Source: Sulfolobus acidocaldarius DSM 639 (GTDB lineage Archaea > Thermoproteota > Thermoprotei_A > Sulfolobales > Sulfolobaceae). From it: a DNA stretch of 32,000 nucleotides. Shown here piece after piece: positions 5,903 through 31,363 of this stretch. The number at the start of each line of letters is the position of its first letter. Position 1 is the first letter of the stretch. The translations under genes and the position numbers were made by a program. Below the pieces are notes generated by a model that saw nothing but the letters and a program-made list of their open reading frames with translations, was not told where the DNA came from and searched no databases. The stretch spans positions 1,830,001 to 1,862,000 of the forward strand of contig NC_007181.1 of the NCBI RefSeq assembly GCF_000012285.1, written 5' to 3'.

Positions 5903-5912
5903 AACATTACTC

Positions 5913-7860: not shown

Positions 7861-8016
7861 ATGGAATGTAATGAGTTCTAGAGTGTAAGTTAAAAGTCTC
7901 ATAATATCTTTCAGATAAAACAACCTTCTTTTATCTCAAGTCCTATCAGATATTAGAATGCCCACTAAAGAGAGTTTAATTCTCAGGGTCTCTATCTATA
8001 GAGTCTCCAATTGAGA

Positions 8017-8912: not shown

Positions 8913-8950
8913 ACTTCTAGGGGTAGAAGTTACTTCTAGGGGTAGAAGTT
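8913..8950 (+). repeat. Perfect 19-bp tandem duplication (ACTTCTAGGGGTAGAAGTT x2)
   Basis: Copy 1 is 8913-8931 and copy 2 is 8932-8950, identical base for base. The TTG start of the downstream ATPase gene (8949) is formed at the end of copy 2. Confidence 0.95.
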
Positions 8951-10031: not shown

Positions 10032-10309
10032 GTAAAAGAGCGTGTAGCTCCTCAACGAATTTTCTTCCATTTTATTTGAACAAATTGCCACGTCTCACTC
10101 CTTTTGAAGAGATCAGTTCCAAGGAGCTCTAGTAAAGAGCGAATCTAATACCAATTTTCACGTGAGTATTTGTACAAAATAACGTGTAACCAACAGTCAC
10201 TCGGATCACTATACGCTTTATCAATATTACAGTGTGGTGAAACCCATTGCCTAAACCGCTAGTCCTCTCAAGAACATTTTTAATTCTTGAACACTATTAT
10301 ATTAGAGAA

Positions 10310-11509: not shown

Positions 11510-11967
11510 CGTATCCCCGTGTATAACAGGACGTTGGAAAATTTTCTTATTACGCTATTTAGTCTAAGAGTCTCTTGCGAGTAAGTTTCATGAATTAATA
11601 ATAATTTTCTACATAAATACGATATAAATTGTAAATAATTATATATTACTTTAATCGGTTAAAGAGTTAGAAATAAGGTAAGAAAGGTGTTAGTAAAACT
11701 CAACCACGTGAGTTTAATAATTACTTATATAGAGAAATATAAACTCCGTCTAACTAAATCCCACGATAACCTCCCTCCCTTACCTGACTAACATAACTAA
11801 AGAAAGATACTAAATTACATTTCCATGAAAGTCCTTCTTCTCCTCAGTTTTTATCAAAGGTTCACAATTTGAATAATAATTTTTAAATTCGACACATGAA
11901 AACTCTTCTCCTCATATTTATATTTAAATATAAAAATAGTGAAGCCACAAAATTAAAATGATTTTTA

Positions 11968-12891: not shown

Positions 12892-12995
12892 GGAGTGTAT
12901 CCGTGATCGTTTAACCTGGGTTTGATCCACTGCTATTCCATCTAGTAACTCAACAGGCTATCTCACAATACCGCATTACACTGAGTGTAGTGCTA

Positions 12996-14063: not shown

Positions 14064-14141
14064 GAGGTATGGATAGCCTATCCAATATATATTTTTATGT
14101 TGAATTGGGGAAGTAAAGTGTCGAAGGTAATTGGTCGTTGA

Positions 14142-14610
14142 AAGGATAGACACCTCTACAGGAGGGCTAGGAGTATACTGGAGGACTCAGCCAAGAAGGT
14201 TGGTAAGTGGGTCGTTAATGTGACTAAATCACTACGTGTTAATACTATCTTGCTGGAGGACTTGAACAACGTGATAAACAGGGTTGAGAAACTACCAACA
14301 GGTTTTAGTGACAAGTCGTACTAAATACAGTACCATAGGATACAGTGCTGGGTCGAGTCTATGAAGTACGGTCTGAAAGTTGTCTTTGTTGACCACAAGT
14401 ATTCTTCAACGTGTTTCATTAAGTGTAATAAAGAGATGAGAGAGGTGTCTCAAGCACCATAAATGTGGAAACTGTGGTTATCAGGGTGACAGAGATATGA
14501 TTACAGTTGTGAATTTGTAGGGGAGGTGTTCTCTGAGCCTCTTAACACCCCGCTGTATGAGGGATATAGACCCGAACCGATGGGGGATCACTTAGGGAGG
14601 AGGTCAGTAG
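14142..14610 (+). pseudogene. 5'-truncated, disrupted tnpB (OrfB) relic
   Basis: Frame-hopping translation gives LYRRARSILEDSAKKVGKWVVN...TILLEDLNNVINRV (RuvC-II E), then a stop, then LKVVFVDHKYSSTC, then ..CGNCGYQGDRDMITVVNL (Zn finger + RuvC-III). There are at least two stops or frameshifts and no N-terminal ~230 codons. Confidence 0.75.
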
Positions 14611-14622
14611 TATATTTAAATA
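14611..14622 (+). promoter_or_regulatory. Putative TATA box of vapBC
   Basis: TATATTTAAATA is centred about 30 nt upstream of the ATG at 14646. Confidence 0.3.
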
Positions 14623-14645
14623 TCTGAATATCTAAGAATCTAAGT

Positions 14646-14897
14646 ATGAGAAAAACAGTAGTTACTTTTGATGATGACGTTTATGAGGCTATAGTGAACC
14701 TGTCAGTAAAGAAATATGGTAACACTAAGAACATCTCAAGAGTTGTAAATGAACTGCTGAGAAAAGAGCTCTCAAGGAGAAGAAAAGTGCGGAGTAATAG
14801 GGTTTCAATGAAGGTCAGTGTAAGAGTCCCTGGAGCAGAGACATTAAGTCCAGAGGAGATCGATAGGATTGCTGAAGAGGAAATTAGCGATAGTTGA
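14646..14897 (+). CDS. vapB: VapB-type antitoxin (ribbon-helix-helix/CopG-like)
   Basis: 83-aa protein. The N-terminus MRKTVVTFDDDVYEAIVNLS...ISRVVNELLRKEL fits an RHH fold. It overlaps the downstream PIN gene by 29 nt. Confidence 0.65.
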   Translation: MRKTVVTFDDDVYEAIVNLSVKKYGNTKNISRVVNELLRKELSRRRKVRSNRVSMKVSVRVPGAETLSPEEIDRIAEEEISDS

Positions 14898-15270
14898 CAC
14901 GAATGTCTTAATATTTGACTTTATTGAAGACTCACAGTATCATGATGTTAGCAGGAAGTTGTTGAATTCATTAGACAGAATGTTAATACTACCAAATATA
15001 CTGGTTGAGTTTATTCTAGTTTCAAGGAGATTGAAGATTAGAGACGAAGATATAAGGAGTAAGGTCGACGAAATACTCAAGAACAGTATTTTAGTAGGAG
15101 TAAAGAAGGAAGACATAAAAGAGGCCATAAGTTTAAGTTTAAAAGAGATAAATGACGCCATAATTGTTAGCGTTGCCAAAAGACTGAATTTGCCTATAAT
15201 TTCCCTCGATAGAGACGTAAAGGAATTGGGTAAGATTGCAGGAGTTATTGTTGTAGACAGACTAGACTAA
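14869..15270 (+). CDS. vapC: VapC PIN-domain toxin
   Basis: AIVDTNVLIFDF (first acidic PIN residue), a later acidic residue in ...NILVEFI..., and a C-terminal NDAIIVSVA...ISLDRD. 133 aa with a TTG start. Confidence 0.8.
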   Translation: MLKRKLAIVDTNVLIFDFIEDSQYHDVSRKLLNSLDRMLILPNILVEFILVSRRLKIRDEDIRSKVDEILKNSILVGVKKEDIKEAISLSLKEINDAIIVSVAKRLNLPIISLDRDVKELGKIAGVIVVDRLD

Positions 15271-15289
15271 TTTTTGTATATAATGCAAT

Positions 15290-15722
15290 AATTGGAATAC
15301 AACATTTTGGTGTTGATGTCGTAATAATAGACCCTTCCATTGGTGAGGTATTACCTCTGAATAGAGAATGCGAGATAGTGGTCGAATGCCCTAGTTTACT
15401 TAAAGTATATAGGAATAAAGAAGAGGAGAGCCGAAAATTATTCGTCAAAATTAATACCATTGAATATTTCAGAGCTTGGGGATTTAGGTTATATTGATGA
15501 CAAAGGTTACTTCTTTATTGAGATAGAATAAAGAGGATGATAAATAAAGAAGGGTATAAAGTATGGCCCACCAAGGTTGAAAATAAATTGTATCAACATC
15601 CAACTGTGTTGGAAGCTCGTGTAGTATCTACCCTAGAATCATGGAATTCGTTAAATATCTTCGTAAGAGTAGTTCTGGAAAAATATTATTGAGGATGTTA
15701 CAAGAGAAAGAAAGGGCTAGGT
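15290..15722 (+). pseudogene. Remnant of the C-terminal third of an AMP-forming acyl-CoA synthetase/ligase
   Basis: Three-frame reading gives GVDVVIIDPSIGEVLPLNRECEIVVECPSLLKVYRNKEEESRKLF, then a frameshift, then LGDLGYIDDKGYFFI, then a frameshift, then RIKRMINKEGYKVWPTKVENKLYQHPTVLEARVV, then a deletion, then MEFVKYLRKSSSGKILLRMLQE. These are hallmark ANL-superfamily motifs broken by at least 2 frameshifts, and the N-terminal two-thirds is absent. Confidence 0.75.
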
Positions 15723-16163
15723 AACTCTAGAACGTATACAGTTAATTATGTAATTAACGTTAGACTCAGCTATTTTTCTTATACTATTTTCTCCTAATAA
15801 TTTAGTTAAAAGCCCCATATCCATTTTAGCACTCCAAATTACTTTTGTGGATTTTTGCATTTCATATAGGTTAAGCGAAATGTTAATCTTTACGCTAACC
15901 CCTGCCGATCTTCCATTGCCGACTATCTCAATTTTCTCATTATCTTTGATTATTTTTGCATTTATATTGGCTGTAATTGTAGACATATGCGGAATATTAA
16001 AGCCACTGACATCTATCTTAAAAGTTGCACTTATCTCATTGTCTCCCTTAATCTCGTAACCTTGTAAGCTAGGTAGACATTCTGTAAACATTTTTGGTTC
16101 TGTGAAAAATTCCGATACTTTTGCCTTTACCATGTTTACCACAAACTCTCCGCTGATCTCCAT
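15717..16163 (-). CDS. CoxG-like/SRPBCC-fold protein co-transcribed with G3P dehydrogenase (candidate membrane anchor)
   Basis: About 148 aa. The pattern MEISGEFVVN...KVSEFFTEPKMFTECLPSL...ISATFKIDV is typical of the CoxG/SRPBCC family. ATG 16163 lies 1 nt after the G3PDH stop (TGAaATG). The track's TTG start at 16181 is less likely. Confidence 0.65.
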   Translation of the reverse strand: MEISGEFVVNMVKAKVSEFFTEPKMFTECLPSLQGYEIKGDNEISATFKIDVSGFNIPHMSTITANINAKIIKDNEKIEIVGNGRSAGVSVKINISLNLYEMQKSTKVIWSAKMDMGLLTKLLGENSIRKIAESNVNYIINCIRSRVT

Positions 16164-16164
16164 T

Positions 16165-17460
16165 TCATCTCCCTCTTGCAATTAATGATAACAGAAGATA
16201 TAAAACAGTTTTATATCTCTCTTCATCTAATGATCCTCTTCTCTCCATTACACTTTTTAAAAATATTTTTGATATTCCAATTTTTTCCAAATATTTTTCA
16301 AAATCTATTTCACTGGGAGAGATGAGTTTAGTCTCCTTAGTTTTGCTCTTTGCTCTTACTCCCAATTTCTCACTAACCAAATCTCCAACCTTTTCCCCTA
16401 CTAATCTTGAAGTGGTAAACTTACCTCCTATTATAGATATTAGACCAGATACCCCATCTTCTCTTTCATGATCTAATATTGTGAAATCTCTACTGGCTTT
16501 TCTACCGTCCTCACTAGTTCTCATTAAAGGTCTAACAGAAGCGTAGGTTCTAATAACTCTCGTTTTAGATAATTCAGGCACTAATTGAGATCCTTCTTTA
16601 ATTAACATCTTCACGTCTTCATCTGATATAGTAAAATTATCTGGGTCTTCAATTATAGTTGCCGTAGTACCCAATATTGAAGTATCTTGATATGGTACTA
16701 TTATATCTCCATCAGAAGGTGGCCTAAGTCTGTTTAGCACTGCGTTATTAACCTTTTTTCCAAACACTGCCATTATTCCAGCTGTAGGCAATATGGGAAT
16801 CTCTTCTAATCCTGCCATTGTAATGATTTTAAACGCCCAAGGTCCCGAGGTATTTATTATTATATCACTTTTTATTAGGTTCATTTGATTAGTAATTTTA
16901 TCGAAAACCTTTACACCTTTTATCGAATTTCCATCCCTAATAAATTCTGTTACCTCATTGTACGTCATAATTCTAGCCTTGTTTAGTGACCCCGTTACGG
17001 CTATGCTTGATAAAAGATCATAACCATATACTACCTTATCCGGAACCCAAATAGCTATTTTTAAGTCTTTATTCACATAAGGTTCTTCTTGTAAGACTTG
17101 ATTATTATCAACTATCTTATGCTCTATCCCTAATTTCTTTAGGGAAGAAAGAAACTTATCTAAAAATTCCAGGTCTTCTTTAGTAATACCTAAAAATAAC
17201 CCCCCTGTATCTCTTATAGCGTGAGGAGCTATTTTCGAAATTATATTGTTTTCTTGAATGCACTCCTTTGCTGACTCAGGATCTGTTACGGCGTACCTAG
17301 CACCACTATGTAAAAGTCCATGGAACCTACCAGAAGTTCCAGATCCAATGTCTCTCCTTTCAACCAGAGTTACATCAATACCTCTTAAAGCCAAGTCTAA
17401 GGCAGTAAATAGACCATTGGCTCCCCCACCTATTACTAGAACGCTTGTTTTTATTTCCAT
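16165..17460 (-). CDS. FAD-dependent glycerol-3-phosphate dehydrogenase (GlpA/GlpD family, short form)
   Basis: VLVIGGGANGLFTALDLALRGIDVTLVE (dinucleotide-binding motif) and GSGTSGRFHGLLHSGARYAV (G3PDH signature). At 431 aa it lacks the C-terminal extension of bacterial GlpA. It is divergent from glpK. Confidence 0.9.
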   Translation of the reverse strand: MEIKTSVLVIGGGANGLFTALDLALRGIDVTLVERRDIGSGTSGRFHGLLHSGARYAVTDPESAKECIQENNIISKIAPHAIRDTGGLFLGITKEDLEFLDKFLSSLKKLGIEHKIVDNNQVLQEEPYVNKDLKIAIWVPDKVVYGYDLLSSIAVTGSLNKARIMTYNEVTEFIRDGNSIKGVKVFDKITNQMNLIKSDIIINTSGPWAFKIITMAGLEEIPILPTAGIMAVFGKKVNNAVLNRLRPPSDGDIIVPYQDTSILGTTATIIEDPDNFTISDEDVKMLIKEGSQLVPELSKTRVIRTYASVRPLMRTSEDGRKASRDFTILDHEREDGVSGLISIIGGKFTTSRLVGEKVGDLVSEKLGVRAKSKTKETKLISPSEIDFEKYLEKIGISKIFLKSVMERRGSLDEERYKTVLYLLLSLIARGR

Positions 17461-17661
17461 AAAAAACTAATTTATATTTTACATTTAAATTTTATTGCCA
17501 GCAGCTATGTTTATTGTTTCCACTTTTCATACTGAATTTCACAATCTATGATTTTTCTACTATGAAATTTAAATGTTGCAGGGAGCCGGTTTAGAATTAC
17601 TATAATATAATAGTAAGAAGTAATAAAGAGTAAACATCAAATAATTATAAATTATATTTTT

Positions 17662-17680
17662 TACGAAAAATTTTTATATG
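17662..17680 (+). promoter_or_regulatory. Putative glpK-glpF promoter (TATA TTTTTATAT), contained in a 19-mer that recurs at 25800-25818
   Basis: TACGAAAAATTTTTATATG ends 24 nt before the ATG at 17704. An identical 19-mer lies at 25800-25818. Confidence 0.4.
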
Positions 17681-17703
17681 AAAATAGAAATGGATAAAAT
17701 GCT

Positions 17704-19197
17704 ATGGCTGAAAAATACGTGATAGCCATAGACGAGGGAACTACTAGTGCGAGAGCTATCGTTTTTGACAAGGAATTAAACATTCTAGGAATAGGGCAAA
17801 ACGAGTTTACTCAATACTATCCTCAACCGGGTTATGTAGAGCATAGTCCTGAGGAAATATGGCAAGCTCAGTTGTTAGCTATAAATAAAGCATTAGAGAA
17901 AGCTAAGATAGATCGAAACAATATTTTGAGTATAGGTATAACGAATCAAAGAGAGACTACAGTGATGTGGGATACTAGAACGGGGAAACCGATATATAAT
18001 GCTATTGTTTGGCAAGATAGGAGAACTGCCCCAATAACTGATTACCTTAAAGCTAACTATTTGAGGTTGATAAAGGATAGGACAGGTTTAGTGCCAGACC
18101 CATACTTTAGTGCATCTAAGATAAAGTGGATTTTAGATAATATACCTAATGCTAGAGAGAAGGCAGAAAAAGGGGAAATAAAGTTTGGAACTATAGATAC
18201 TTACTTAATATGGAAATTAACTAACGGTAAAGCTCATGTAACTGATTATTCAAACGCGTCTAGGACTATGCTATTTAATATAAGAAAATTAGAGTGGGAC
18301 AGAGAAATATTGGAAATACTTAACATACCCGAGGCTATTTTACCTGATGTAAAGCCTTCAAGCGAGATTTATGGTTACGCTGAGATTCTTAATTCTTCTA
18401 TACCTATATCAGGAGACGCTGGAGACCAACAGGCTGCGTTGTTTGGTCAAATAGCATTCAACCAAGGAGATGTGAAATGCACATATGGTACTGGTAGTTT
18501 CATTTTACTTAATACAGGGAGTAACTTAGTTTCCTCTAACGATCTGCTAACAACTATAGCATGGGGGGTAGGTAAAGGAATCACATATGCTTTAGAGGGC
18601 AGTATATTCATCACTGGGGCAGCTGTTCAATGGTTCAGAGATGGTCTTAGAGCTATAGATGTATCTGATGAAATAGAACCTTTAGCCGGTAGCGTTCCAG
18701 ATAATGGTGGGGTGTATTTCGTCCCTGCATTTACGGGATTAGGAGCACCATACTGGGACCCTTACGCAAGGGGACTAATAATAGGAATAACTAGGGGTAC
18801 TACTAAGGCTCACATTGCTAGAGCGATATTAGAATCGATGGCATATCAGACAATGGATGTGTTAGGAATAATGCAGAGGGACTCTGGGATAAAGATAGAC
18901 GCACTTAAGGTAGATGGTGGTGCCTCAAAGAACGACTTACTAATGCAATTTCAAGCTGACATACTTAAAATGAAAGTAGTAAGACCGAAGATTATGGAAA
19001 CGACTTCGATGGGAGTTGCGATGCTAGCAGGCTTAAGTGTAGGGTATTGGAACTCTATGGATGAGTTAAAACAGAAGTGGAAAATTGACCAGGTATTTGA
19101 ACCTAAGATGGATGATGAATATAGGGAAAAATTATATTCAGGATGGAAAGAAGCAGTGAGAAGAGCCTTAGGTTGGGCTAAGACTATTGGGGGTTGA
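17704..19197 (+). CDS. glpK: Glycerol kinase
   Basis: [54 protein letters not shown] and [19 protein letters not shown] together match FGGY-family GlpK throughout its 497 aa. Confidence 0.95.
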
Positions 19198-19203
19198 GAC
19201 AAA

Positions 19204-20085
19204 ATGGCATCGGAAGTTGTAAGGGATAGTTTGTGGAGGTATTTTGCTGAATTTGTGGGTACCTTTATCTTAATGCTCTTCGGTGATGGTGCAGTAGTAG
19301 CGTCCTTAGTAACTAACGGTACATCACCGGGTTATGGATTTATTATGATATCATGGGGATTCGGAGTTGTCTTAGCAATTTACGCTGTAGGTCCAATAAG
19401 TGGAGCTCATATAAATCCAAACGTTACGTTAGCTTTCGCAGTTACAAAAAGGATGAAGTGGAGAGATGTAATTCCCTATATATTGTTCCAAACGTTAGGA
19501 GCAGCTGCTGCAGCAGGAATATTACTAGCCTGGTGGGGTAGCATTATTACTAAAATGGATCCTCCACCCACTTTATATGCCCAAGTAGGAGCATCGTTTT
19601 TTACAGAATATCCAAATCCATCCTTCTGGGGTCAATATTGGCCTAAAGAATTACTGCTACCAAATTCAGCGAGCGGGACTTCACTGTTTTCTGAAGTTAA
19701 TCAAGTATTTCCGTTATGGATAGGTGCTTTCGCTGAATTGCTGATGACTTTCTTACTCTTATTGATAGTCTTAGCGGTTACTGACACTGATTCACCGTTT
19801 TTCAATCAAAGCTTAGCTCCATGGGCTATTGGTATAGGTTATGTGATGCCATTCTTATTGTTTGAGGCTCAACTAACGGGGGGTATGATAAATGAGGCCA
19901 GAAGCTGGGGACCAATGCTAGCCCTTTACTTATTTGGGTATAGAACTGGAGCGTTCAACTTTAGAGGGCAGTATTTCTTCGTCTATGGTATCCCAGATTT
20001 TATAGGAGGCATCTTAGGTGCTCTGTTCTGGGATTACGTATTGAAGCCATATCTTAAATATCTAAAAAGCAATAATAAAAAATAA
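19204..20085 (+). CDS. glpF: MIP-family aquaglyceroporin (glycerol uptake facilitator) with non-canonical NPA boxes
   Basis: AEFVGTFILMLFGDG, ISGAHINPNVTLAFA (box 1 NPN) and LTGGMINEARSWGPML (box 2 NEA). It lies 6 nt downstream of glpK. Confidence 0.85.
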   Translation: MASEVVRDSLWRYFAEFVGTFILMLFGDGAVVASLVTNGTSPGYGFIMISWGFGVVLAIYAVGPISGAHINPNVTLAFAVTKRMKWRDVIPYILFQTLGAAAAAGILLAWWGSIITKMDPPPTLYAQVGASFFTEYPNPSFWGQYWPKELLLPNSASGTSLFSEVNQVFPLWIGAFAELLMTFLLLLIVLAVTDTDSPFFNQSLAPWAIGIGYVMPFLLFEAQLTGGMINEARSWGPMLALYLFGYRTGAFNFRGQYFFVYGIPDFIGGILGALFWDYVLKPYLKYLKSNNKK

Positions 20086-20090
20086 AATAG

Positions 20091-20101
20091 TTTTTTATTT
20101 T
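20091..20101 (+). terminator. Oligo-T tract downstream of glpF
   Basis: TTTTTTATTTT begins 6 nt after the stop codon. Archaeal termination commonly uses such T-runs. Confidence 0.35.
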
Positions 20102-20245
20102 ACTCCAACAGGTGTCTCCACTAAAGACTTTTTACAATTTCCTTAAGGTTGAAAACTATAAACGTCGATAGACACATAGACCAAAATACTCTATATTTTA
20201 GATAACTTTTTAAATAAGTTTTGTAATTCTAATTTGGTCAATATA

Positions 20246-21289
20246 ATGTATAGGGTTTCTGAGAGAGATATATATCATTTAGCGATAGGTAGTTCAGTTT
20301 TAGGCTCCGGAGGAGGAGGTAATCCGTTTCTAGGATATGAAATATTAAAGACGAAAATGAAAGAACTCAATAAAGACGAGCTATATTATGAACAGGAAAT
20401 AGCTGATAATGATTTCATTATTGGAGTAGGAGGTATGGGATCTCCATTGGTAGGTATAGAAAAAATACCAGCTGGTACAGAATATTTTAAAGCCTATGAA
20501 TGTTTATCTAAATTTCTCAAGAGAGAAGCATCCAGGATAACATCAATAGAAATAGGTGGTATAAACTCTGTGGTACCATTTATTGCCTCGTTATTCGCCA
20601 ATAAGCCCTTAGTTGATGGTGATTTGGAGGGAAGAGCTTTTCCAGAACTTTATATGACTACTTCGCATTTTATCGGTATAAATGCTACGCCAATGTGCAT
20701 AGTAGATGAGAGGGGTAATCAAGTAATTTTAGACTCTGTTGATAACTACTATGCTGAAAAAATCGCTAGAAGTATAACTGTTAGATTTGGAGGAAGAGGT
20801 TATATTGCTATTTATCCTATGAATGGAGAGAGTTATATTAAAAGTGCAATACTAGGGAGTATTTCGCTTAGCATAGATATCGGTAAAATACTGAATAATG
20901 AAGGACTGGATTCCATGTTAGATTATGTTAAGGGTAGGATTCTCTTTCATGGAAAAGTTATAGATGTAAGAAGAACTAATTTGCCAGGTTTCAACTCAGC
21001 TATAGTAACGATTCAAGGTTTAGAGGAATACAAGGATTACATTGCTAAGTTATACGTTAAGAATGAATACTTATTATTTGAAGTCAATAATAATATTGTT
21101 TCAATTGCACCAAATATAATAAATCTTGTAGATTATAGAAATAAAATAATTACGTCAGATATGATTAAATACGGTATTAGGGTTAGAGTTATCGGAATTC
21201 CCGTTTCACCAAAATGGAGAGAAATAGGAGGAGAAGAGATAATTTCAAAAAATATATTAAATGAGTATAAAAAATTATTAAATCTTTAA
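20246..21289 (+). CDS. DUF917-family protein, paralogue 1
   Basis: Family hallmarks as I remember them: LGSGGGGNP, GGMGSPLVGIEKIP, IEIGGINS and DGDLEGRAFPEL. ATG 20246 is preferred because TTTTAAATA lies about 30 nt upstream. The 3' end overlaps the convergent gene by 12 nt. Confidence 0.8.
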   Translation: MYRVSERDIYHLAIGSSVLGSGGGGNPFLGYEILKTKMKELNKDELYYEQEIADNDFIIGVGGMGSPLVGIEKIPAGTEYFKAYECLSKFLKREASRITSIEIGGINSVVPFIASLFANKPLVDGDLEGRAFPELYMTTSHFIGINATPMCIVDERGNQVILDSVDNYYAEKIARSITVRFGGRGYIAIYPMNGESYIKSAILGSISLSIDIGKILNNEGLDSMLDYVKGRILFHGKVIDVRRTNLPGFNSAIVTIQGLEEYKDYIAKLYVKNEYLLFEVNNNIVSIAPNIINLVDYRNKIITSDMIKYGIRVRVIGIPVSPKWREIGGEEIISKNILNEYKKLLNL

Positions 21290-23892: not shown

Positions 23893-23893
23893 T

Positions 23894-24283
23894 TTACACC
23901 TTTATTATTGAATATCCTTTTTTATATGCGAGATATAATAACGATGCTCCCCATATTGCTTGAATTATTGACATTAAGCTTTCTATAGCCACTATGAAAA
24001 TTGTTGTATATAGTATTGGAGCATAAATTATTGAGATGTAACCAAGTGCGAAGGAAACTATTAGCCATGAAAATTGAACTCCGGCTCTTGTCCTATCCTC
24101 TATGTTATTGTTTCTGAGATATCTTATAGCATCCCAAATACATAAAAATAGAATCAAAACTCCATATGTTAAATTATAAATTTTGACAAAATAAGCCACA
24201 TCTGCCATATATAGGCTAATGTATGCTATGCTTATTAAGAAATTTACTACTAAATAATATGTAAATAAATTGTTTACATTCAT
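23894..24283 (-). CDS. Small 4-TM membrane protein, unknown function, translationally coupled to the NCS1 permease
   Basis: 129 aa with four hydrophobic helices. Its ATG overlaps the permease stop (ATGA, 24280-24283), and it ends 1 nt before the DUF917 start. Confidence 0.55.
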   Translation of the reverse strand: MNVNNLFTYYLVVNFLISIAYISLYMADVAYFVKIYNLTYGVLILFLCIWDAIRYLRNNNIEDRTRAGVQFSWLIVSFALGYISIIYAPILYTTIFIVAIESLMSIIQAIWGASLLYLAYKKGYSIIKV

Positions 24284-25647
24284 GATAATCTCCCACCTTT
24301 ATAAGTGTAGGGTAAGATCTCTGGACTTTTCCCTAGTAATTCAAAAATGTAGTATATTAGAATATATGCTAAGAAACCTGTTATCAATGCGTTTATTGCA
24401 GGTATACCATATGGAACTATAAATCCTACTAGTGCACCCAATCCTAATGCTACTACACCAGCAATATTAAGATTATAGTAAGCGTTACCAGGTTTAAACT
24501 TATACCTTTCATGAGGGTCTTTAACTCCTTTTAAGTAACTTCTTACAATGAAGAAGTCAGCAATTACTATACCTCCCACAGGTGGAAGTATGTTTCCTAA
24601 TACGGTTATAAAATTTTCAAAGGGAGTTATAGATGAACCTGCGGTAAATCCTACATATGCTGCAACGGCGGTCCCTATTACACCATTAATCACTGATGCT
24701 AACTCTCTTCTCATCGGATATAAGTTAACAAGAGATAAAGATCCACTATATAGGTTATCTGTATTTATTATGAATTGACCAAATACTATAATCAGTAATA
24801 CACCAGCTCCCATACCTAATTCTAGCATAGCGTTAGTGACTAAATATGTACCAGTTACTAGAACCATTGCCACGCCGCCTAATATCAGGAAGGGATAGAG
24901 GAAAATTATGTGTGCTACCCAGGCTACACTAGCGTCTTTTGCGGTTTTACCAAATCTAGCTATGTCCGGGGATATTATAGTTCCTGCGCTATATAATCCT
25001 ACAGTGGCTGATATTCCGTCTAATAAACTCATATGTGATGTTGGTGCAGCAGACATGACAGCGGAAAATCCACCTTTTAATGCAATCACTATCGCAATAC
25101 CTATTGCAATTAACCATATATGAAATGGAATTGTAAAATAGCTTAAGAACGATAGCATTTTATATCCTATATACGTCATCACGATCATTATTATACCTCC
25201 CCAAATTGCTGCGAAACCAACCGAAAAGAAAGGATTATTGGGAAATATCTCATTCATAACTATACCAAATAGCCATGTCTCAACAGCATACCAACCAATT
25301 CCAGTAGTTACTGTAATTAACAAAAATCCAGCAATTTTTCCTCCCCATCTACCTAGAGGAAATCTCCATAATACGTAGGTCGAAAGTCCACTATATGCAC
25401 CTATGGAGGCAGCTAGCCCACCTAAGATTGTTAGCACTATAGTACCACCTAACACTGCTATTATTGCCTGACTGAATGTTAAACCATACCCTAATGCTCC
25501 TCCAGCCCATATTACAGCTATAGCACCATAAACAGAAGCAAACACTAAAAACATGTTATAGAATCCGTATCTGGACTGCTTAGGTACTTCTTCTAGTGAA
25601 TAATCATCAAATTTTGAAGTTTCCTCTTTACTTTTTTTTCCTTCCAT
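24280..25647 (-). CDS. NCS1-family permease (purine/cytosine/hydantoin/allantoin type, CodB-like)
   Basis: 455 aa and about 12 TM helices. It has the N-terminal EEVPKQSRYGFYNMFLVFAS...WAGGALG motif typical of the purine-cytosine permease family. Confidence 0.8.
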   Translation of the reverse strand: MEGKKSKEETSKFDDYSLEEVPKQSRYGFYNMFLVFASVYGAIAVIWAGGALGYGLTFSQAIIAVLGGTIVLTILGGLAASIGAYSGLSTYVLWRFPLGRWGGKIAGFLLITVTTGIGWYAVETWLFGIVMNEIFPNNPFFSVGFAAIWGGIIMIVMTYIGYKMLSFLSYFTIPFHIWLIAIGIAIVIALKGGFSAVMSAAPTSHMSLLDGISATVGLYSAGTIISPDIARFGKTAKDASVAWVAHIIFLYPFLILGGVAMVLVTGTYLVTNAMLELGMGAGVLLIIVFGQFIINTDNLYSGSLSLVNLYPMRRELASVINGVIGTAVAAYVGFTAGSSITPFENFITVLGNILPPVGGIVIADFFIVRSYLKGVKDPHERYKFKPGNAYYNLNIAGVVALGLGALVGFIVPYGIPAINALITGFLAYILIYYIFELLGKSPEILPYTYKGGRLS

Positions 25648-25836
25648 ACTCTAAGTTAACTTAGTAATAATAATAAATTTTTACATGTTATTTAAGGATA
25701 AATTTACTTTTCAAAATATTCAGTTATATGTAAGCCTTTGTTTCAAGGTTACCTTGCAATATCGAACTATGGAATAAAATCACTTTAGACTACTAGATAT
25801 ACGAAAAATTTTTATATGGGATGGGGCGAAATTTTT

Positions 25837-26316
25837 TCACTCTAGAATTGTAGCGCCCCACGCCTTATGGGATCTTATTGCAAAATTTATCTTGTAATCC
25901 ATCACAGCATCGTGATTGATTATAGTTAAAATCTCCTCCTTTAACTGAACTGGATCAGAATGAAAAACTCTTACCAGAAGATCCCATTCTCCTACATATT
26001 CAGATATCTCATAAATTAGTTCATTGGAAAGCAAAGACTTTATGTAGGTCTGTCTTAGTTCTTTTACATTCTTTAATTTCACAAGTACATCAGCATAAGG
26101 TACACCTAGATTTTGAAGAACTACAACTCCTATGACTTTCAGAATTTTCTTATTTTCTAATCTCAACCTTCTCATTCTAATAGTAGTTTTTGATAATCCT
26201 ATTTCTCTAGCTATCTTAGCATCTGAAGTGTTAGCGTTGTTATTCAATATTTTTAAAATCTTAATGTCCTTTTCATCAAGGTATTTAGAAAGTATATCTT
26301 CCCATTTTTTTGCCAT
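25837..26316 (-). CDS. Lrp/AsnC-family transcriptional regulator
   Basis: DEKDIKILKILNNNANTSDAKIAREIGLSKTTIRMRRLRLE (HTH) followed by a RAM-type C-terminal domain (ADVLVKLK...LLVRVFHSD). It is divergent from hyuA. Confidence 0.85.
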   Translation of the reverse strand: MAKKWEDILSKYLDEKDIKILKILNNNANTSDAKIAREIGLSKTTIRMRRLRLENKKILKVIGVVVLQNLGVPYADVLVKLKNVKELRQTYIKSLLSNELIYEISEYVGEWDLLVRVFHSDPVQLKEEILTIINHDAVMDYKINFAIRSHKAWGATILE

Positions 26317-26423
26317 TTCATGTCAACTATAATTTTTTAAAAATAAAAACCTTATACTCCTTGTTCTTTGAATGGATTTAGTAGTTCAAAAGACTATGTG
26401 TTATTAAACTTTAGAAAACAAAT

Positions 26424-26435
26424 CCTTAAATTTTT
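26424..26435 (+). promoter_or_regulatory. Putative hyuAB TATA box
   Basis: CCTTAAATTTTT is centred about 26 nt upstream of the ATG at 26455. Confidence 0.3.
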
Positions 26436-26454
26436 GTAGATATCCAATTAAATA

Positions 26455-28497
26455 ATGATAAGAATTGGAATAGACATAGGAGGCGCATTTACGGACTTGG
26501 TGTATTATGACCAGAGCAATGATGAGTTCGAGTGGATCAAAGTAGAGACTACTACGCAAGATCCTTCGATAGGCGTAATAAGAGCTGTAGATGAATCAAA
26601 AGTCGATTTGAAAAATGCAAACGAGATTATTCACGGTCAAACGTTAGCTATAAACACTATAATAGAGAGAAAGGGAGCTAAAGTAGGGCTTATTACTACG
26701 AAGGGATTTAGAGATATTCTTGAAATACAAAGAGCAAATAGGAGAGACATGTATAATTTCAAGTATAAGAAACCAGAATCATTTGTTCCAAGATATTTAA
26801 GAAGAGAAGTAAGTGAAAGGATATCGTCATCTGGAGAGATAATATCGCCTTTAAAGATTGAAGAATTAAAAATAGTGGTTAACGATCTTGTAAAAAAAGG
26901 TGTGGAATCTATTGCTGTCTCCCTCATAAACTCATATGTTAATTCTGCTCATGAATTAAAAGTAAAGGAATTATTAAAGGAAATTCTAGGGGATAGCGTT
27001 TTCATCAGTCTCTCGCATGAGATTACTAGAGAATGGGGAGAATATGAGAGAACAAATACAGTAGTGCTGAACGCCTATATTAAACCTAAGATGAACAACT
27101 ATTTGAGAAAGCTAAAAAAAGAGATAGATAAAAGAGGATTTAAAGGGAAATATTACGCTATGCTCTCGAACGGTGGGATGGCCACATTTGATTTCACTAT
27201 GGACTTTCCTATCACCACATTAGAATCCGGTCCAGTGGCAGGTATAATAGGGGCTATCGCAATAGGCGAGTTGGCTCATGAGAAAAACATCATAGGATTA
27301 GATGGGGGAAGTACTACTACTAAGGCCAGCCTCGTAGAGAACTTAATGCCTAATATTATAACTGATTATTATATTGAAAGGAATCCATATTCACCAGGCT
27401 ATCCTGTAAAAGTTCCTACAATAGATATTGTAGAGGTAGGAAATGGGGGTACCAGTATTGCATGGATCGACGAGATAGATAATCTCAAAGTAGGACCAAG
27501 GGCAGCTGGTTCATATCCTGGACCAGCTGCATATGGTAGAGGAGCAACTGAGCCGACTGTCACCGATGCATATATTCTCTCTGGGCTACTCAATCCTAAT
27601 GAGCTATTAGGAGGAAAATTGAAAGTGAGAAGAGACCTAGCAGAGAAAGCCATAAAAAGGATAGCAGATCACTATAAAATCTCTGTTGATGAAGCAGCTG
27701 AAGGCATAGTAAGATTAGCGAATAATAACGCGGTAAATGTAATAAGATTAGTTTCTGTTCAAAGAGGATATGACCCTAGAGACTTTGTTCTAATTGCATA
27801 TGGAGGTTCTGGACCAATGTTTGCTCCTTTCATAGCTGAAGAATTAGACTTAAAGAAAGTTATAGTACCTTTTGTACCACCTGGTGTGTTTTCTGCTTGG
27901 GGAATGCTAGTAGCCGATATTAGGCATGACTTAGTTAAAACTGAATTGGTTAGGATAGACAAGGAAGATGCCATCAATAAAATTAATAGTGTATTTGATG
28001 AATTGGAGAAAAAGATTTTGCAATTCTTTGCCTCAGAGGGATTTAATGCAAATGATGTCATGATATTTAGAGAAGCAGAAATGAGATATTATGGGCAATC
28101 ACATACAGTCAAGGTTAACGTTATGAACGGAGAATTAAGAGATAAAGAGATTGGTGAAATAATAAATAAATTCCACTTGCAACATGAGGCGACCTACTCC
28201 TTTAAATCGGCTAGTCCTATAGAAATCGTTAACTTCCGTGTATATGGAATAATTAGAGCAAAAAAGGTACCATTATTAAAGCGTAAACTAAACGGTAATA
28301 GTATTAAGGAAAGTACTAGAAACGTATTCATAAATGGCAAATACGAGGAGTTTAAAGTCTACGATAAGTCTACATTGTCTACAGACTGTAAAGTTCATGG
28401 TCCTGCTATATTAGAAGATCCAACATCAACGATAATAATACTTAAGGGACAAAGAGGGGAAATAGACGATTATGGTAATGTAATAATTACGAGGTGA
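26455..28497 (+). CDS. hyuA: Hydantoinase/oxoprolinase/acetone-carboxylase family, A (beta) subunit
   Basis: MIRIGIDIGGAFTDLV, TTKGFRDILEIQR, GLDGGSTTTKAS and IAYGGSGPMFAP. The 680-aa length is typical of HyuA. Confidence 0.85.
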   Translation: MIRIGIDIGGAFTDLVYYDQSNDEFEWIKVETTTQDPSIGVIRAVDESKVDLKNANEIIHGQTLAINTIIERKGAKVGLITTKGFRDILEIQRANRRDMYNFKYKKPESFVPRYLRREVSERISSSGEIISPLKIEELKIVVNDLVKKGVESIAVSLINSYVNSAHELKVKELLKEILGDSVFISLSHEITREWGEYERTNTVVLNAYIKPKMNNYLRKLKKEIDKRGFKGKYYAMLSNGGMATFDFTMDFPITTLESGPVAGIIGAIAIGELAHEKNIIGLDGGSTTTKASLVENLMPNIITDYYIERNPYSPGYPVKVPTIDIVEVGNGGTSIAWIDEIDNLKVGPRAAGSYPGPAAYGRGATEPTVTDAYILSGLLNPNELLGGKLKVRRDLAEKAIKRIADHYKISVDEAAEGIVRLANNNAVNVIRLVSVQRGYDPRDFVLIAYGGSGPMFAPFIAEELDLKKVIVPFVPPGVFSAWGMLVADIRHDLVKTELVRIDKEDAINKINSVFDELEKKILQFFASEGFNANDVMIFREAEMRYYGQSHTVKVNVMNGELRDKEIGEIINKFHLQHEATYSFKSASPIEIVNFRVYGIIRAKKVPLLKRKLNGNSIKESTRNVFINGKYEEFKVYDKSTLSTDCKVHGPAILEDPTSTIIILKGQRGEIDDYGNVIITR

Positions 28498-28502
28498 TAT
28501 GA

Positions 28503-30227
28503 ATGGATCAATTTACCTTAGAAATAATTAAGAACGGACTAATAGTAGCTTCTGAAGAAATGTTTTACGCTTTCGGTAGAACCGCCAGAAGTCCTGTAAT
28601 ATATGAAGTGTTAGATTTCGCTGTAGGTATAACTGATAAGTATGGTAGAGGTCTTGTGGTACAAGCTCCAGGTGTCCCAGGATTTTCTGGAGTGTTGGAT
28701 TTTACCATAAGGGAAGTAATGGCTAAGTGGAAAGATGAGATAAAACCTGGCGATATGATTGCTACTAATATACCATATGATGGTGGAACTCACTTAAACG
28801 ATGTAGCTCTGATAATGCCGATGTTTTATAAGGATATTCTCCTAGGCTTCATTGTTAATAAAGGACATTGGAGTGAAATAGGAGGAATGCATTTTGGGAG
28901 TTGGACGTCAGACGCTACCGAAATATATCAAGAAGGACTTCAGTTACCTTCCATAAAATTATTCATAGAAGGTAAACCCAATAGAGATGTAATTGACATT
29001 ATAAAGGCTAATTCCAGAATGCCTGATGCCACATTAGGGGACATGGATGCACAATTAGCATCAATGAGAGTAGCATACAGGAGAGTTCAGAGGTTGGTCA
29101 TGAAATATGGCGTTGATAACGTTTTAACGGCGATGGATAAGCTAATAGAAGATGGAGAGAGATTAAGTAAGTTGAGACTGAAGGAGCTACCTAAGGGTGT
29201 ATACGAGGCAGAAGATTACATAGACGATGATGGAATATCTGATAATCCAGTTTATGTGAAAGTAAAAGTTACCATTACTGAGGATAAATTTATAGCTGAC
29301 TTCACTGGAAGTTCTAGGCAGGTTAGAGGACCAATAAATTCTCCATTACCTGCAACAGTCTCTGCAGTGAGAGAAATATATATGGCAGTTACAGATCCTT
29401 ATGCTCCGCCTAATGCTGGGTATTTTAAACCTCTAGAAGTAATAGCTCCAGAGGGTAGTATATTTAATCCTAGTAGACCAGCTCCAACATCAACCTATTG
29501 GGAGTCGATGTCGTATGCTACAGATTTAATATGGAAAGCGTTAGCTCCTCACGTTAACGGAAGACTTCCAGCCGGACATTTCTTATCAATTCTCGCTACC
29601 ATACTAGGGGGTGTTAAGGAAGATGGAGAACCTTTTGCAATTGTGGAACCACAGCCTGGAGGATGGGGAGCAAGTAATAATTCCGATGGAGAAAGTGGAC
29701 TGGTAGCTAGTGGGGATGGAGAAACATATATAGCTTCAGCTGAAGTGTACGAAAAGAGGATGCCAATTCTAGTAGATAGATTGGAATTAAACGTTAGTGA
29801 TGGAACTGGTCATGGAAAATATAGAGGAGGATTTGGAATAATAAAGGACTACATCGTAATGAGTGAACAAGCTTACCTCACAGTTTCAATAGGGAGGTCA
29901 AAGTACCCTACATGGGGAGTTGAGGGTGGAATGAATGGGACGCCAAATTATTGTATGATATTTAAGAGAGGAGAAGAACCTAAGAGGATGAGAAAAGTAG
30001 CCTCATTATTGCTTTATAAAGGTGATAAAGTAAGTTTAAGAAGCGGAGGAGGTGGAGGTTGGGGTAATCCAGCGGAAAGAGATCCCAATCTGGTTTTAAA
30101 TGATGTACTCAACGAATATATTAGTGTAGAAGACGCTGAAAAGATCTATAAGGTAAAAATTAAGGAAACTAACGGAATCTATGAGATAGACTGGGAAGGA
30201 ACTAAGAAGATAAGGATTAACAAGTAA
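28503..30227 (+). CDS. hyuB: Hydantoinase/oxoprolinase family, B (alpha) subunit
   Basis: DQFTLEIIKNGLIVASEEM, YDGGTHLNDVALIMP, GDMDAQLASMRV and GGGGWGNPAERDP (conserved HyuB C-terminus). It lies 5 nt downstream of hyuA. Confidence 0.85.
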   Translation: MDQFTLEIIKNGLIVASEEMFYAFGRTARSPVIYEVLDFAVGITDKYGRGLVVQAPGVPGFSGVLDFTIREVMAKWKDEIKPGDMIATNIPYDGGTHLNDVALIMPMFYKDILLGFIVNKGHWSEIGGMHFGSWTSDATEIYQEGLQLPSIKLFIEGKPNRDVIDIIKANSRMPDATLGDMDAQLASMRVAYRRVQRLVMKYGVDNVLTAMDKLIEDGERLSKLRLKELPKGVYEAEDYIDDDGISDNPVYVKVKVTITEDKFIADFTGSSRQVRGPINSPLPATVSAVREIYMAVTDPYAPPNAGYFKPLEVIAPEGSIFNPSRPAPTSTYWESMSYATDLIWKALAPHVNGRLPAGHFLSILATILGGVKEDGEPFAIVEPQPGGWGASNNSDGESGLVASGDGETYIASAEVYEKRMPILVDRLELNVSDGTGHGKYRGGFGIIKDYIVMSEQAYLTVSIGRSKYPTWGVEGGMNGTPNYCMIFKRGEEPKRMRKVASLLLYKGDKVSLRSGGGGGWGNPAERDPNLVLNDVLNEYISVEDAEKIYKVKIKETNGIYEIDWEGTKKIRINK

Positions 30228-30699
30228 TTTTATTATATCATTATTATATAAATTGATATTTATGAAGAAAATAATTATTTTTATTTATTTTTTAGTTAAT
30301 TATATGTCTCATCATGTCCCAAGACGGCGAGTTGATTCAATTCCTTAATATGAATTGCAGGACTTATAGATTTTCCTCAAGTTTATTGACCCTTTTTCAT
30401 TTAAATCAAAGGTCACCGCCACGACATAACAGGAATTTACATGAATTGAGAAAGGAAAGTGAAAGGATTGATATATTTAGACTAGTTGAAGTATATTTTA
30501 GTAACAAAAGCCTACTCTCTTTCAAATTCTCAATTCTTTAAGTCTGAATAACAACTTAAACTTTTACGCTTTTTACCCTACAATAGATAGGTTAACCAGT
30601 TACCTAATACCATGAGTTAAAATGTAATGACGGTATTTTTATTTTGACATAAATTGAATTTCTTTGTATGTGAGAGCAAAACAAGTGTTTTTAGTTTGA

Positions 30700-31290
30700 G
30701 GGCGAGAAGTAGTTAGAGGGCGAGGAAACTTGAATAGGTTTTAGTTCCTTAACCTTACTTGATTGAGAAAACACTAGTATCCAGAAGCTTAAAGTTAACG
30801 AGCCTTGGCTACCATAAAACCTACAAGACGGTCAAAAATATTCCTCATAATAATTTACTCGAAAAATCTATCAACATGAGTTGGGATTTGGTCGTTGATT
30901 GTATATCAGTAAAACGTATCTCCGGTCTCTTAACTAATTACCCACTACCCTGAAGTTAATGAGCATTCATTTAACGTAGCTAGATAGTTCTCTAGACATC
31001 TTGCCTTCAATTATTTTTCCTAAGTGACGGTTTGCCTCTTGTCATTAGAGGCTCTGTTAAATTGAGGGCCTTTTACCTGGTTCGCCGATAGTGAATCTCG
31101 TAAACGTTAAATTGGTTTAGCCTCGAGGTAAAACCTATTCTCTGCATACAAATCCCTTAGTTCTCGTAACTCGGTCTCATACAAGTAGTCGAAGCCTAAA
31201 CAGGTCGTCTCTAATAACTTTTGCGTGAAAGGAAAAGTTAGCGAGAAACACAAGGTTTAATCAGCTTGAATCGAGCCTCAAGTGTATTTT
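30700..31290 (-). pseudogene. Possible decayed RAMP (Cas7-like) gene downstream of the intact type III gene
   Basis: No ORF longer than 75 aa. Minus-strand frame fragments read TLEARFKLIKPCVSR (31238-31285), LETTCLGFDYLYETELRELRDLYAENRFYLEAKPI, and PSCRFYGSQGSLTLSFW (30781-30831). The last resembles NCPVERLYGSEYFASALTISD of the neighbouring intact RAMP. The fragments occur in the same order as in that protein. Confidence 0.25.
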
Positions 31291-31363
31291 TGTGTATATC
31301 TTTATCTTACTTAAAACTATAAAAAACAAGTGGTCTTTGCAATAGAATTTTCCCTCTCTCCTC

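Follow-up and report, generated by a model that had tools for sequence, protein, structure and literature searches.

A metabolic island of probable Saccharolobus-like origin, apparently fused from two unlinked loci, in the chromosome of Sulfolobus acidocaldarius DSM 639

Chromosomal DNA that is not itself mobile is moved between Sulfolobales cells by exchange of the Ups-pili/Ced type, which is described as species-specific and homology-dependent. The block of DNA described here differs from this, in that it would have crossed genera and its joints are without flanking homology. It resembles the metabolic islands of the Sulfolobaceae in being an accessory catabolic set that is not found in the closest relative and is compositionally discordant with its neighbours, and in lying in the origin-distal zone with IS, toxin-antitoxin (TA), and CRISPR-Cas genes, origin-proximal regions being without mobile elements (PMC3091651). 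Unlike those islands, it has no integrase, tRNA, or att site, it appears to consist of two unlinked loci fused at microhomology, and its G+C content is that of the recipient mean, so that it would be missed by genome-wide G+C screens. Foreign chromosomal inserts crossing Sulfolobales species are also represented in S. acidocaldarius by integrated conjugative plasmids and the STIV provirus (PMC5554439). These are strain-variable and carry their own element genes, whereas the block holds only host-type metabolic genes; it does not coincide with any of the four large regions described as variable across 50 S. acidocaldarius strains (PMC5554439).

The window is the whole 32,000-nucleotide stretch analysed, positions 1,830,001 to 1,862,000 of NC_007181.1. 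The favoured reading, given a probability of roughly 85%, is that ~15283-30248 is a ~15-kb metabolic island imported by the DSM 639-type lineage from a Saccharolobus-like donor near Saccharolobus sp. A20. This would have happened after the split of the DSM 639-type lineage from the SUSAZ lineage, and would have placed two donor loci head to tail with their joint in an intergenic spacer, one locus being a module for glycerol uptake and catabolism and the other a cyclic-amide (hydantoinase/oxoprolinase-type) module of 8 genes. The insertion site, origin-distal and probably rearrangement-prone, would also have gathered a tnpB relic, a VapBC cassette, and a type III cas operon. The features are, from left to right:

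323..14154, left flank, ancestral to the genus, collinear with S. acidocaldarius SUSAZ, very high GC3 (0.37-0.62)
1633-5204, polyphosphate (polyP) operon within the left flank (Pfam)
5854..7775, plus strand, IS607-like insertion, outside the island, with serine resolvase (5913-6542) and TnpB (6532-7788)
12996-14153, minus strand, NiCoT, end of the left flank
14155..14608, plus strand, decayed 3' part of tnpB, beginning exactly at the end of SUSAZ homology
14646-14897, plus strand, VapB, forming an intact toxin-antitoxin pair with VapC
14869-15270, plus strand, VapC, PIN domain (Pfam), GC3 0.38
15283..20188, both strands, putative donor piece 1, matching an A20 locus and contig L048
15283-15722, plus strand, acyl-CoA synthetase pseudogene, 3' third only, frameshifted
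15717-16181, minus strand, CoxG, COXG domain (Pfam)
16165-17460, minus strand, G3PDH, DAO domain (Pfam)
17704-19197, plus strand, glycerol kinase (GK), FGGY_N/C domains (Pfam)
19204-20085, plus strand, GlpF, MIP domain (Pfam)
20183..20194, putative fusion point of the donor pieces, intergenic, after the stop codon of glpF and before the promoter of DUF917
20189..30248, both strands, putative donor piece 2, 8-gene DUF917/Hyu/NCS1/Lrp cluster (Pfam), comprising the next eight features
20234-21289, plus strand, DUF917
21278-22822, minus strand, short HyuA-like protein
22813-23892, minus strand, second DUF917
23894-24283, minus strand, small protein
24280-25647, minus strand, NCS1 permease
25837-26316, minus strand, Lrp/AsnC
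26455-28497, plus strand, HyuA
28503-30227, plus strand, HyuB
30249..31363, AT-rich tract, 33.9% G+C, no ORF above 81 codons from stop to stop
31364-32125 (the window ends at 32000), minus strand, 3'-terminal RAMP gene, intact 253-aa ORF (Pfam RAMPs)

A preliminary description had called 14610-30700 a low-G+C block on hand-counted lines, six of the seven counts being exact and the seventh, 1001-1060, being 28/60 and not 31/60. The drop against the neighbours is real: G+C is 35.6% for 14610-30700 and 35.9% for the refined block 15283-30248, against 42.8% for the left flank 323-14154 and 46.7% for 1-5200. The block is not low for the genome (2.226 Mb, mean G+C 36.7%), where it stands at the 30th percentile of 16-kb windows and is thus ordinary, while among 5-kb windows 1-5000 ranks in the top 0.3%, surpassed only by the rRNA operon. 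Mean GC3 per gene is 0.28 in the block (range 0.23-0.34; n=12), 0.53 in the left flank (n=14; p = 2e-5, Mann-Whitney), and 0.46 in the right flank (n=11; p = 6e-5). When 10 genes each side of every boundary were compared, the GC3 step ranked 2nd at the left edge and 13th at the right edge among 2015 gene boundaries. The codon contrast seen by eye, AAG/AGG/GAG on the left and AAA/AGA/GAA in the block, is reflected in fractions for the former codons that fall from 0.69/0.70/0.76 on the left to 0.39/0.28/0.38 in the block, the genome as a whole having 0.46/0.39/0.47.

The compositional outliers of this genome are the flanks, not the block, and that its G+C is typical of the genome means that the composition argument, on its own, points the wrong way. 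The G+C of the block fits the recipient mean as well as that of the donor, and from composition its origin is undecidable. The alternative raised in the preliminary description, that the block is native and its surroundings foreign, finds its evidence here: the flanks are the outliers in GC3 (0.40-0.62) and in intergenic G+C (0.36 vs 0.32), SUSAZ has nothing closely related to the right-hand cas operon, and the zone contains IS elements, TA pairs, and CRISPR. The flanks may be older acquisitions, though, without the block being native thereby, and it is 89-94% identical to another genus. The left flank, moreover, is syntenic in SUSAZ (G001), 323-14155 aligning at 85-91.6% nt with a pooled dS of 0.335 and the IS607-like unit (Pfam Resolvase and Cas12f1-like TNB domains) as the sole gap, whereas the block is not found there. 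This settles which side is native, and the reverse assignment is scarcely credible. The left flank, which also includes an archaeal ATPase, a TPR protein, and a GT2-like protein (Pfam), is ancestral to Sulfolobus, since it is collinear with this congener at such identity.

Neither donor piece was found in SUSAZ (100% complete, one contig), which has only a 65-70% paralogue set and a HyuB relative of only 35%, and from which GlpF is absent. The right-hand neighbour also differs in SUSAZ, so that there is no clean empty site.

Both pieces have close matches in A20. Piece 1 is 89% (89.2%) identical in nucleotides to A20 1191531-1196059 and 93.9% to the A20-like metagenome contig L048, with lower values for the synthetase fragment (78% and 87.8%), and its proteins are 86-96% identical to those of A20. 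Piece 2 matches A20 2524502-2534565 at 88.9% across 10,069 nt, with proteins 88-94% identical, and apart from weak Hyu-type and DUF917 similarities no second copy of its genes was found in the genome. A20 genes just outside the pieces have best matches here of only 30-85% aa, against 86-96% inside. Pooled dS between the block and A20 is 0.49, similar for both pieces; against L048 it is 0.185, below the 0.335 that separates this genome from SUSAZ in the left flank. With dN/dS of 0.03-0.16, the block genes appear to be under purifying selection. The nearest sampled relatives, A20 and L048, are still 6-11% nt away, which means that the true donor is unsampled and dating is relative only.

These matches support the earlier proposal of horizontal acquisition from a member of the Sulfolobales lower in G+C than the local flanks. 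The block is discordant in composition with adjacent DNA, was not found in SUSAZ though the left flank is conserved there, and resembles a distant lineage much more closely than the rest of the genome does. The GK tree is at odds with the species tree, the window GK and that of L048 forming with A20 one clade (100/99 support), while the native paralogue pairs with the SUSAZ GK on a separate long branch. The G+C step would reflect donor-like DNA (GC3 ~0.28) that sits in the recipient's most GC3-rich zone and has not yet drifted.

Direction is indicated by the synthetase fragment, the 'shattered' remnant of the preliminary description, which is genuine: 15291-15721 is frameshifted and is 60% identical in amino acids to residues 369-553 of the intact synthetase that this genome also encodes. 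In A20 and L048 the synthetase is intact beside CoxG, and a DNA match to it adjoins the glycerol cluster in G053 too; here the gene is cut at ~residue 369, frameshifted, and more diverged than the rest of the piece. That it is intact in the donor, with only a decayed 3' third here, fixes the direction of transfer of piece 1. Across the edge of the piece 1 segment, identity between L048 and A20 stays at a uniform 86-94%, and the glycerol segment is therefore at home in their lineage. Piece 2 was probably also transferred toward the DSM 639 lineage, although in a four-protein tree the window and A20 share a long branch that falls outside the compact core-Saccharolobus group, to which G045, of another genus, is nearer than A20 is.

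Had both clusters been old Sulfolobus genes, passed by an ancestor of S. acidocaldarius into the A20 lineage and lost by SUSAZ, that piece 2 tree, which does not nest the window and A20 within the donor genus, would be accommodated, as would the A20 flanks of the matching loci, which are not syntenic with the congener G019. The A20 polyP operon is also unusually near that of this genome (74%, vs 46% for the congener of A20), and exchange between the lineages may thus go both ways. A truncated, frameshifted synthetase tail cannot, however, yield the intact gene of A20 and L048, and the uniform divergence of these two across the segment edge also argues against this direction. DNA matching the block is present in 8/8 sampled species of the donor genus (glycerol genes 8/8, hydantoinase cluster 5/8) and in 1/2 Sulfolobus genomes. 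One fused island would have to be split into loci that are 1.3 Mb apart in A20, and block GC3 equals the background of A20 (G+C 34.8%; genes flanking the two loci GC3 0.25-0.35) and is below the local baseline of this genome (0.28 vs 0.37, p = 5e-7). Transfer out of Sulfolobus is very unlikely on these grounds.

The block, in the reading favoured here, would be made up of two donor loci that are not linked to each other, with the join at 20188|20189, a feature absent from the earlier reading. The match to L048 runs up to 20188 and the match to the A20 hydantoinase locus sets in at 20189, with microhomology of ~5-6 nt at the join, which suggests illegitimate end-joining at short microhomology; the fusion may have taken place in the donor itself, on a vehicle, or in the recipient. 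The two clusters are adjacent in none of the eight sampled species of the donor genus. The lack of linkage between the loci in all of the donor relatives sampled, and the uptake of VapBC, a tnpB element, and the cas operon at the same site, would fit two separate acquisitions at different times, abutting at an insertion hotspot. This is unlikely, as the pieces abut with no recipient sequence between them, have the same divergence from A20 (89.2% vs 88.9% nt), and overlap in their per-gene dS ranges.

At the left, the island edge is at ~15283, inside the synthetase fragment, and not at 14610 as previously placed. The truncated tnpB relic and the VapBC pair described there are both present, but are material separate from the island. 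Two consecutive frame fragments of the relic match the Cas12f1-like TNB model (E 0.011, 0.0011), and at the DNA level it matches a further copy in the same genome (G000:889831-890212) with 73% identity. The VapBC pair has its best DNA match (76%) in G002, of another genus, with none in A20 or SUSAZ, and would have a third origin.

No tRNA was found at the block, and no integrase or conjugation domain was detected by Pfam in 14155-31363, only metabolic, transport, and regulator domains being seen in the block. The two edges have no word longer than 11 nt in common, a length attained in 70% of shuffles, so att-like insertion, for which a search had been suggested, has neither direct repeats above chance nor a tRNA in its favour. 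No genes of an integrated conjugative plasmid or integrative element (integrase, conjugation ATPases, replication protein) were seen in or beside the block, the serine recombinase at 5913 being part of the IS607-like unit, 8 kb off. Nor is a composite transposon supported: the tnpB relic is on the left only, and the right tract has no transposase signal.

The pieces may have travelled on a conjugative plasmid or integrating element that entered at this site and has since decayed to the tnpB relic, VapBC, and the 1.1-kb tract. TA pairs and IS relics, which plasmids typically carry, are placed exactly at the left edge, and integrated plasmids and a Sulfolobales-shared virus are documented in this species (PMC5554439). 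Such a vehicle is doubtful, with no surviving integrase, att repeat, tRNA target, or conjugation gene, with the nearest DNA relative of VapBC in a third genus, and with the relic belonging to a tnpB family that is multi-copy in many Sulfolobaceae. For the imported island, the most likely route of entry would be as chromosomal fragments, or on a plasmid that captured them.

To the right, the 1.1-kb tract is ORF-free as described (30228-31363), and its elements at 30636-30749 and 30823-30899 recur in other intergenic places, with copies in G000, A20, and SUSAZ. The RAMP-like remnants reported within it are not supported: tblastn with the proteins of this genome, and with operon ORFs of this genome and its relatives, had no hits there, a RAMP profile (10 orthologues of the adjacent gene) scored at best -1.8 in six frames, equalled by 21% of shuffles, and no match came from Pfam on the fragments, nor a noteworthy one from Rfam. 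Nor is the suggested erosion of the type III operon seen, the terminal RAMP gene being intact and the spacer without detected cas remnants. The operon (III-D-like; NCBIfam matches to Csx7, Csm3, and Cas10 along it) runs to ~39.3 kb in window-equivalent coordinates; the nearest SUSAZ homologue of its terminal gene is 50% identical in amino acids and at a different locus. It lies on the right side only, 1633-5204 on the left being the polyP operon and not cas.

The gene set and divergent two-operon order of piece 1 are as in the published saci_2031-2034 type (Pfam), and from these and G+C, among others, we infer that its glycerol genes are that cluster. Glycerol is reported to induce saci_2031-2034, and growth on this substrate to require the GK of the cluster (PMC11962113); the island set would thus be the one that the cell actually uses. 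The GK/G3PDH/CoxG set saci_1117-1119 has been described as a paralogue of saci_2031-2033 (PMC11962113), and indeed has the same three enzyme families in a divergent arrangement, at 56-70% aa. This native set is shared with SUSAZ and is without GlpF, whereas the island genes group with those of A20 and L048. The island set includes the only GlpF of this genome, and is reported as essential on glycerol. The sequence comparisons suggest that the island genes are recent xenologues of the native set and not an old within-genome duplication.

Among the Crenarchaeota, S. acidocaldarius serves as the main genetic model, and its genome is usually called stable and mobile-element-poor. If one of its two 'paralogous' glycerol sets, characterised in 2025, is a recent import from another genus, this changes the reading of their redundancy, of their differing regulation, and of the distribution of glycerol use in the group. 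SUSAZ, with the native set only and no GlpF, is predicted to show little or no growth on glycerol. A foreign segment can match the genome-mean G+C, its signal here being only relative to an unusually GC3-rich neighbourhood, and the fused unlinked donor loci would provide defined joints for studies of illegitimate recombination in archaea. It may tentatively be suggested that machinery-free chromosomal DNA crosses genera in the Sulfolobales, and that fragments of two distant loci were co-imported and joined at microhomology, both to one another and to the recipient chromosome, in one event that gave S. acidocaldarius sensu stricto, but not SUSAZ, its growth on glycerol.

The lower-GC block had been read as a horizontal acquisition, and comparison with other genomes indicates that this reading is right. 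Its DNA is 89-94% identical to that of Sulfolobus/Saccharolobus sp. A20 (PMC5127849; genome of 2,688,317 bp, 34.8% GC) or of an A20-like metagenome contig (L048, JGI 3300029921), and is not found in the same-genus strain S. acidocaldarius SUSAZ. The block is a further example of an already known kind of event. It consists of two pieces, one with glycerol genes and one with a hydantoinase cluster, set among the following features.

1633-5204: polyphosphate operon (histidine phosphatase, PPX, two thymidylate-kinase-like, PPK3-subunit, genes, CHAD)
5854-7775 (genes 5913-7788): IS607-like element with serine resolvase and TnpB, an insertion without counterpart in the syntenic SUSAZ region
Between the IS607-like element and NiCoT: archaeal ATPase, TPR protein and GT2-like protein
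12996-14153, minus strand: NiCoT
14155-14608: tnpB relic
14646-15270: VapBC, best DNA match 76%, in a third genus
15283-15722: acyl-CoA synthetase tail
15717-20085: CoxG, G3PDH, GK, GlpF
20234-30227: DUF917, short HyuA-like, DUF917, small protein, NCS1 permease, Lrp, HyuA, HyuB
30228-31363: ORF-free tract of 1.1 kb
From 31364 to about 8 kb past the window, minus strand: type III (III-D-like) operon with Cas10 and several Csx7/Csm3-like RAMP genes

Within the first piece, 15629-20145 is 89% identical to G009:1191531-1196059 of the A20 genome, and the synthetase tail is 78% identical to the adjoining A20 DNA. L048, a contig of 12.8 kb that is collinear with A20 across 11.5 kb at about 90%, is 93.9% identical to 15629-20188. 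The second piece, 20189-30248, matches G009:2524502-2534565 at 88.9% over 10,069 nt, and the two A20 loci are 1.3 Mb apart. A20 genes inside the two pieces have best matches in this genome at 86-96% amino acid identity, while those just outside reach only 30-85%. The GK of the block is 95% identical to that of A20, but only 70% identical to the second copy in its own genome and to the single copy that SUSAZ has. In SUSAZ, which is 100% complete in one contig, there is only a paralogue set at 65-70%, the HyuB relative is only 35% identical and GlpF was not found.

Among 46 species representatives of the family, DNA matching the block is present at 67-75% identity in all eight species of the genus of A20. 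All eight have the glycerol genes and five have the hydantoinase cluster, but in none are the two side by side, and no contig with both pieces adjacent was found in the 46 representatives or in the protein-cluster contigs. A search with HyuB for related loci in genome contigs returned no Sulfolobaceae. The nearest relatives of HyuB (28503-30227) beyond that family are in Thermoplasmata-type MAGs and Acidiplasma, at 56-69% amino acid identity, and thermoacidophiles appear to pass the cluster among themselves.

For the glycerol piece, the sequence comparisons demonstrate transfer from an A20-like lineage into this genome. The synthetase adjoining CoxG is intact in A20 and L048 (550-552 aa), and DNA matching its tail adjoins the glycerol cluster in a further species of the genus (G053) too, whereas this genome keeps only the frameshifted 3' third. 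The tail is more diverged than the rest of the piece, with 78% versus 89% identity to A20 and 88% versus 94% to L048. Identity between L048 and A20 is uniform across the edge of the segment (86-94% per 500 nt), and the segment is therefore at home in that lineage. In the tree the window copy is nearer to L048 than to A20, which places it within that clade. In the case of the hydantoinase piece the same direction is inferred from its equal divergence from A20, its fusion to the glycerol piece, the failure to find it in SUSAZ and a GC3 equal to the A20 background. Neither a four-protein tree nor flank synteny settles the direction for this piece; the flanks of the A20 hydantoinase locus are not syntenic with those in another species of its genus (G019).

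At the left junction, around 15283, homology starts about 13 nt past the vapC stop, inside the donor synthetase gene at around residue 369. At the middle junction the L048 homology stops at 20188 and homology to the A20 hydantoinase locus starts at 20189. This joint is in the intergenic spacer, past the glpF stop and ahead of the DUF917 promoter, and some 5-6 nt of sequence are shared there. At the right junction homology stops 10-20 nt past the hyuB stop. The window contains no tRNA, no integrase or conjugation gene was found by Pfam in 14155-31363, and comparison of the edge zones for att-like direct or inverted repeats turned up none above the level of shuffled sequence. The island has no mobility functions of its own, its joints share no more than a few bases of homology, and it unites two unlinked donor loci. 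These features fit imported fragments that would have been end-joined, whether they came in directly or on a vehicle later lost to decay. The intercellular transfer step itself cannot be read from the sequence.

Pooled over the block, dS to A20 is 0.49 and dS to L048 is 0.185, and for the left flank the dS separating this genome from SUSAZ is 0.335. Assuming similar rates, these values would make the import more recent than the split from SUSAZ. The dN/dS of the block is 0.03-0.16, and its genes are therefore maintained. The island has probably reached fixation in the species sensu stricto, since the four large variable regions among 50 strains do not include it (PMC5554439) and protein look-ups return 58 contigs that carry the same DUF917 sequence, including one of 2,286,709 bp.

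The preliminary description also held that the import or a later rearrangement appeared to have eroded the distal end of the type III cas operon, leaving RAMP-like remnants in the ORF-free tract. This appears to be wrong. The last gene of the operon is intact, and four methods, one of them a profile search run with a shuffle control, found no RAMP or cas remnant in 30228-31363. One weak tblastn match in the tract (E 0.004, against a tiny database) is absent from that profile search. The motif-like fragment has on either side a short element (30636-30749 and 30823-30899) of which further copies occur in the intergenic DNA of this genome, A20 and SUSAZ. Copies of the first are at G000:1811025 and G000:1806484 in this genome, with several in A20 and SUSAZ, and there are at least 15 copies of the second in A20. 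The first was considered as a CRISPR leader and rejected, because none of its other copies borders an array; the second does not lie next to CRISPR arrays either. The tract and its two elements have no Rfam match of note, and internal repeats of the tract are trivial. Within the operon, at L050:7402-8706 (window-equivalent 37402-38706), the match of a 155-aa ORF to the Csx7 model is confined to the C-terminal half of the model, whereas the adjacent 278-aa ORF matches all of it. A split gene or a partial duplication could account for this.

The region 323-14155 is collinear with SUSAZ at 85-91.6% nucleotide identity, save for the IS607-like insertion. Past NiCoT, SUSAZ has a 9.5-kb DoxD/DsrE/TusA/sulfur-transporter cluster (L026:7849-17426) with no DNA match in this genome. 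At its other end in SUSAZ, the shared segment adjoins a homologue of G000:1871142 (window-equivalent 41142). These neighbours mean that 14155-41142, which includes the tnpB relic, VapBC, the island, the 1.1-kb tract and the cas operon, is missing at that SUSAZ site and that the shared 14 kb is inverted relative to its right-hand neighbour. The protein nearest in SUSAZ to the terminal RAMP protein of the operon is only 50% identical and is at a different locus. On this evidence, foreign modules of differing origins have collected at the locus.

The lower G+C of the block is a real step against its flanks, but genome-wide the block is ordinary, at the 30th percentile of 16-kb windows in this single contig of 2,225,959 bp and 36.7% GC, of which the window is G000:C1:1830001-1862000. 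GC is 35.6% in the block as first delimited (14610-30700) and 35.9% in 15283-30248, against 42.8% in the left flank (323-14154) and 46.7% in 1-5200; apart from the rRNA operon, no 5-kb stretch of the genome is richer in GC than the one that opens the window. On recount, six of the seven original hand counts on 60-nt lines were exact and one was wrong, and codon counts confirmed the codon preferences noted by eye between block and left flank. Most of the contrast comes from third codon positions, with GC3 of 0.23-0.34 in twelve block genes, 0.37-0.62 in fourteen left-flank genes and 0.40-0.52 in eleven right-flank genes. With ten genes taken on each side, the left edge is the 2nd and the right edge the 13th sharpest GC3 step among 2015 gene boundaries.

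In 20-kb bins, GC3 across the genome is two-layered. One layer is a smooth gradient with GC3 of 0.24-0.29 at its three minima, the replication origins (about 0-50 kb, 520-720 kb and 1.12-1.28 Mb), and 0.36-0.38 between them. This gradient looks like a codon-level effect, because intergenic GC does not track it (Spearman -0.07). There are also discrete islands with GC3 above 0.42 (0.42-0.53), at 400-440, 500-520, 1220-1240, 1300-1320, 1520-1540, 1640-1680 and 1740-1885 kb. Intergenic GC is raised in the three islands measured (0.36-0.38 versus 0.32), yet is independent of the gradient, which suggests that the islands have a compositional history of their own. The largest, at about 1.74-1.885 Mb, contains the window, CRISPR arrays and cas genes, and the block is a hole inside it, with GC3 below the origin-distal baseline too (0.28 versus 0.37, p = 5e-7). 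The left flank, though high in GC3, predates the split from SUSAZ.

The polyphosphate operon in this flank, which is not a cas operon, has the gene order of the published saci_2018-2020 (PMC12995831) and the highest GC3 of the whole genome (0.59-0.62). Its proteins are 93-99.5% identical in SUSAZ and 57-82% in A20. The PPX of A20 is 74% identical to the one here, that of its congener G019 only 46%, and the A20 operon has a GC3 above the A20 background. This hints that DNA also passed between these two lineages at an earlier time. Mini CRISPR arrays with a 25-nt repeat (Rfam CRISPR-DR25) are present at 11-102 in the window (2 copies), at G000:1825971-1826628 (11 copies) and at G000:1786371-1786584 (4 copies); the two large arrays (1.65 and 1.67 Mb) have a different repeat.

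An identical 19-mer is present at the glpK promoter (17662-17680) and in the lrp/permease spacer (25800-25818) of the block. It is kept at both unlinked A20 loci (0 and 1 mismatch) and in L048, and may be a promoter or operator element shared by both clusters in the donor. The hydantoinase piece looks like an uptake and ATP-dependent ring-opening pathway for some cyclic amide, and the island is the sole source in this genome of GlpF and of DUF917, NCS1 and Lrp genes of its type. The gene order of the glycerol piece is that of the published saci_2031-2034 cluster, with a G3PDH anchored by CoxG and strong induction on glycerol; of the two GK copies, only the one in this cluster is essential on glycerol (PMC11962113). 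That paper calls both sets paralogues, and transfer goes unmentioned. The import of the block bears usefully on the published physiology of the model organism S. acidocaldarius.
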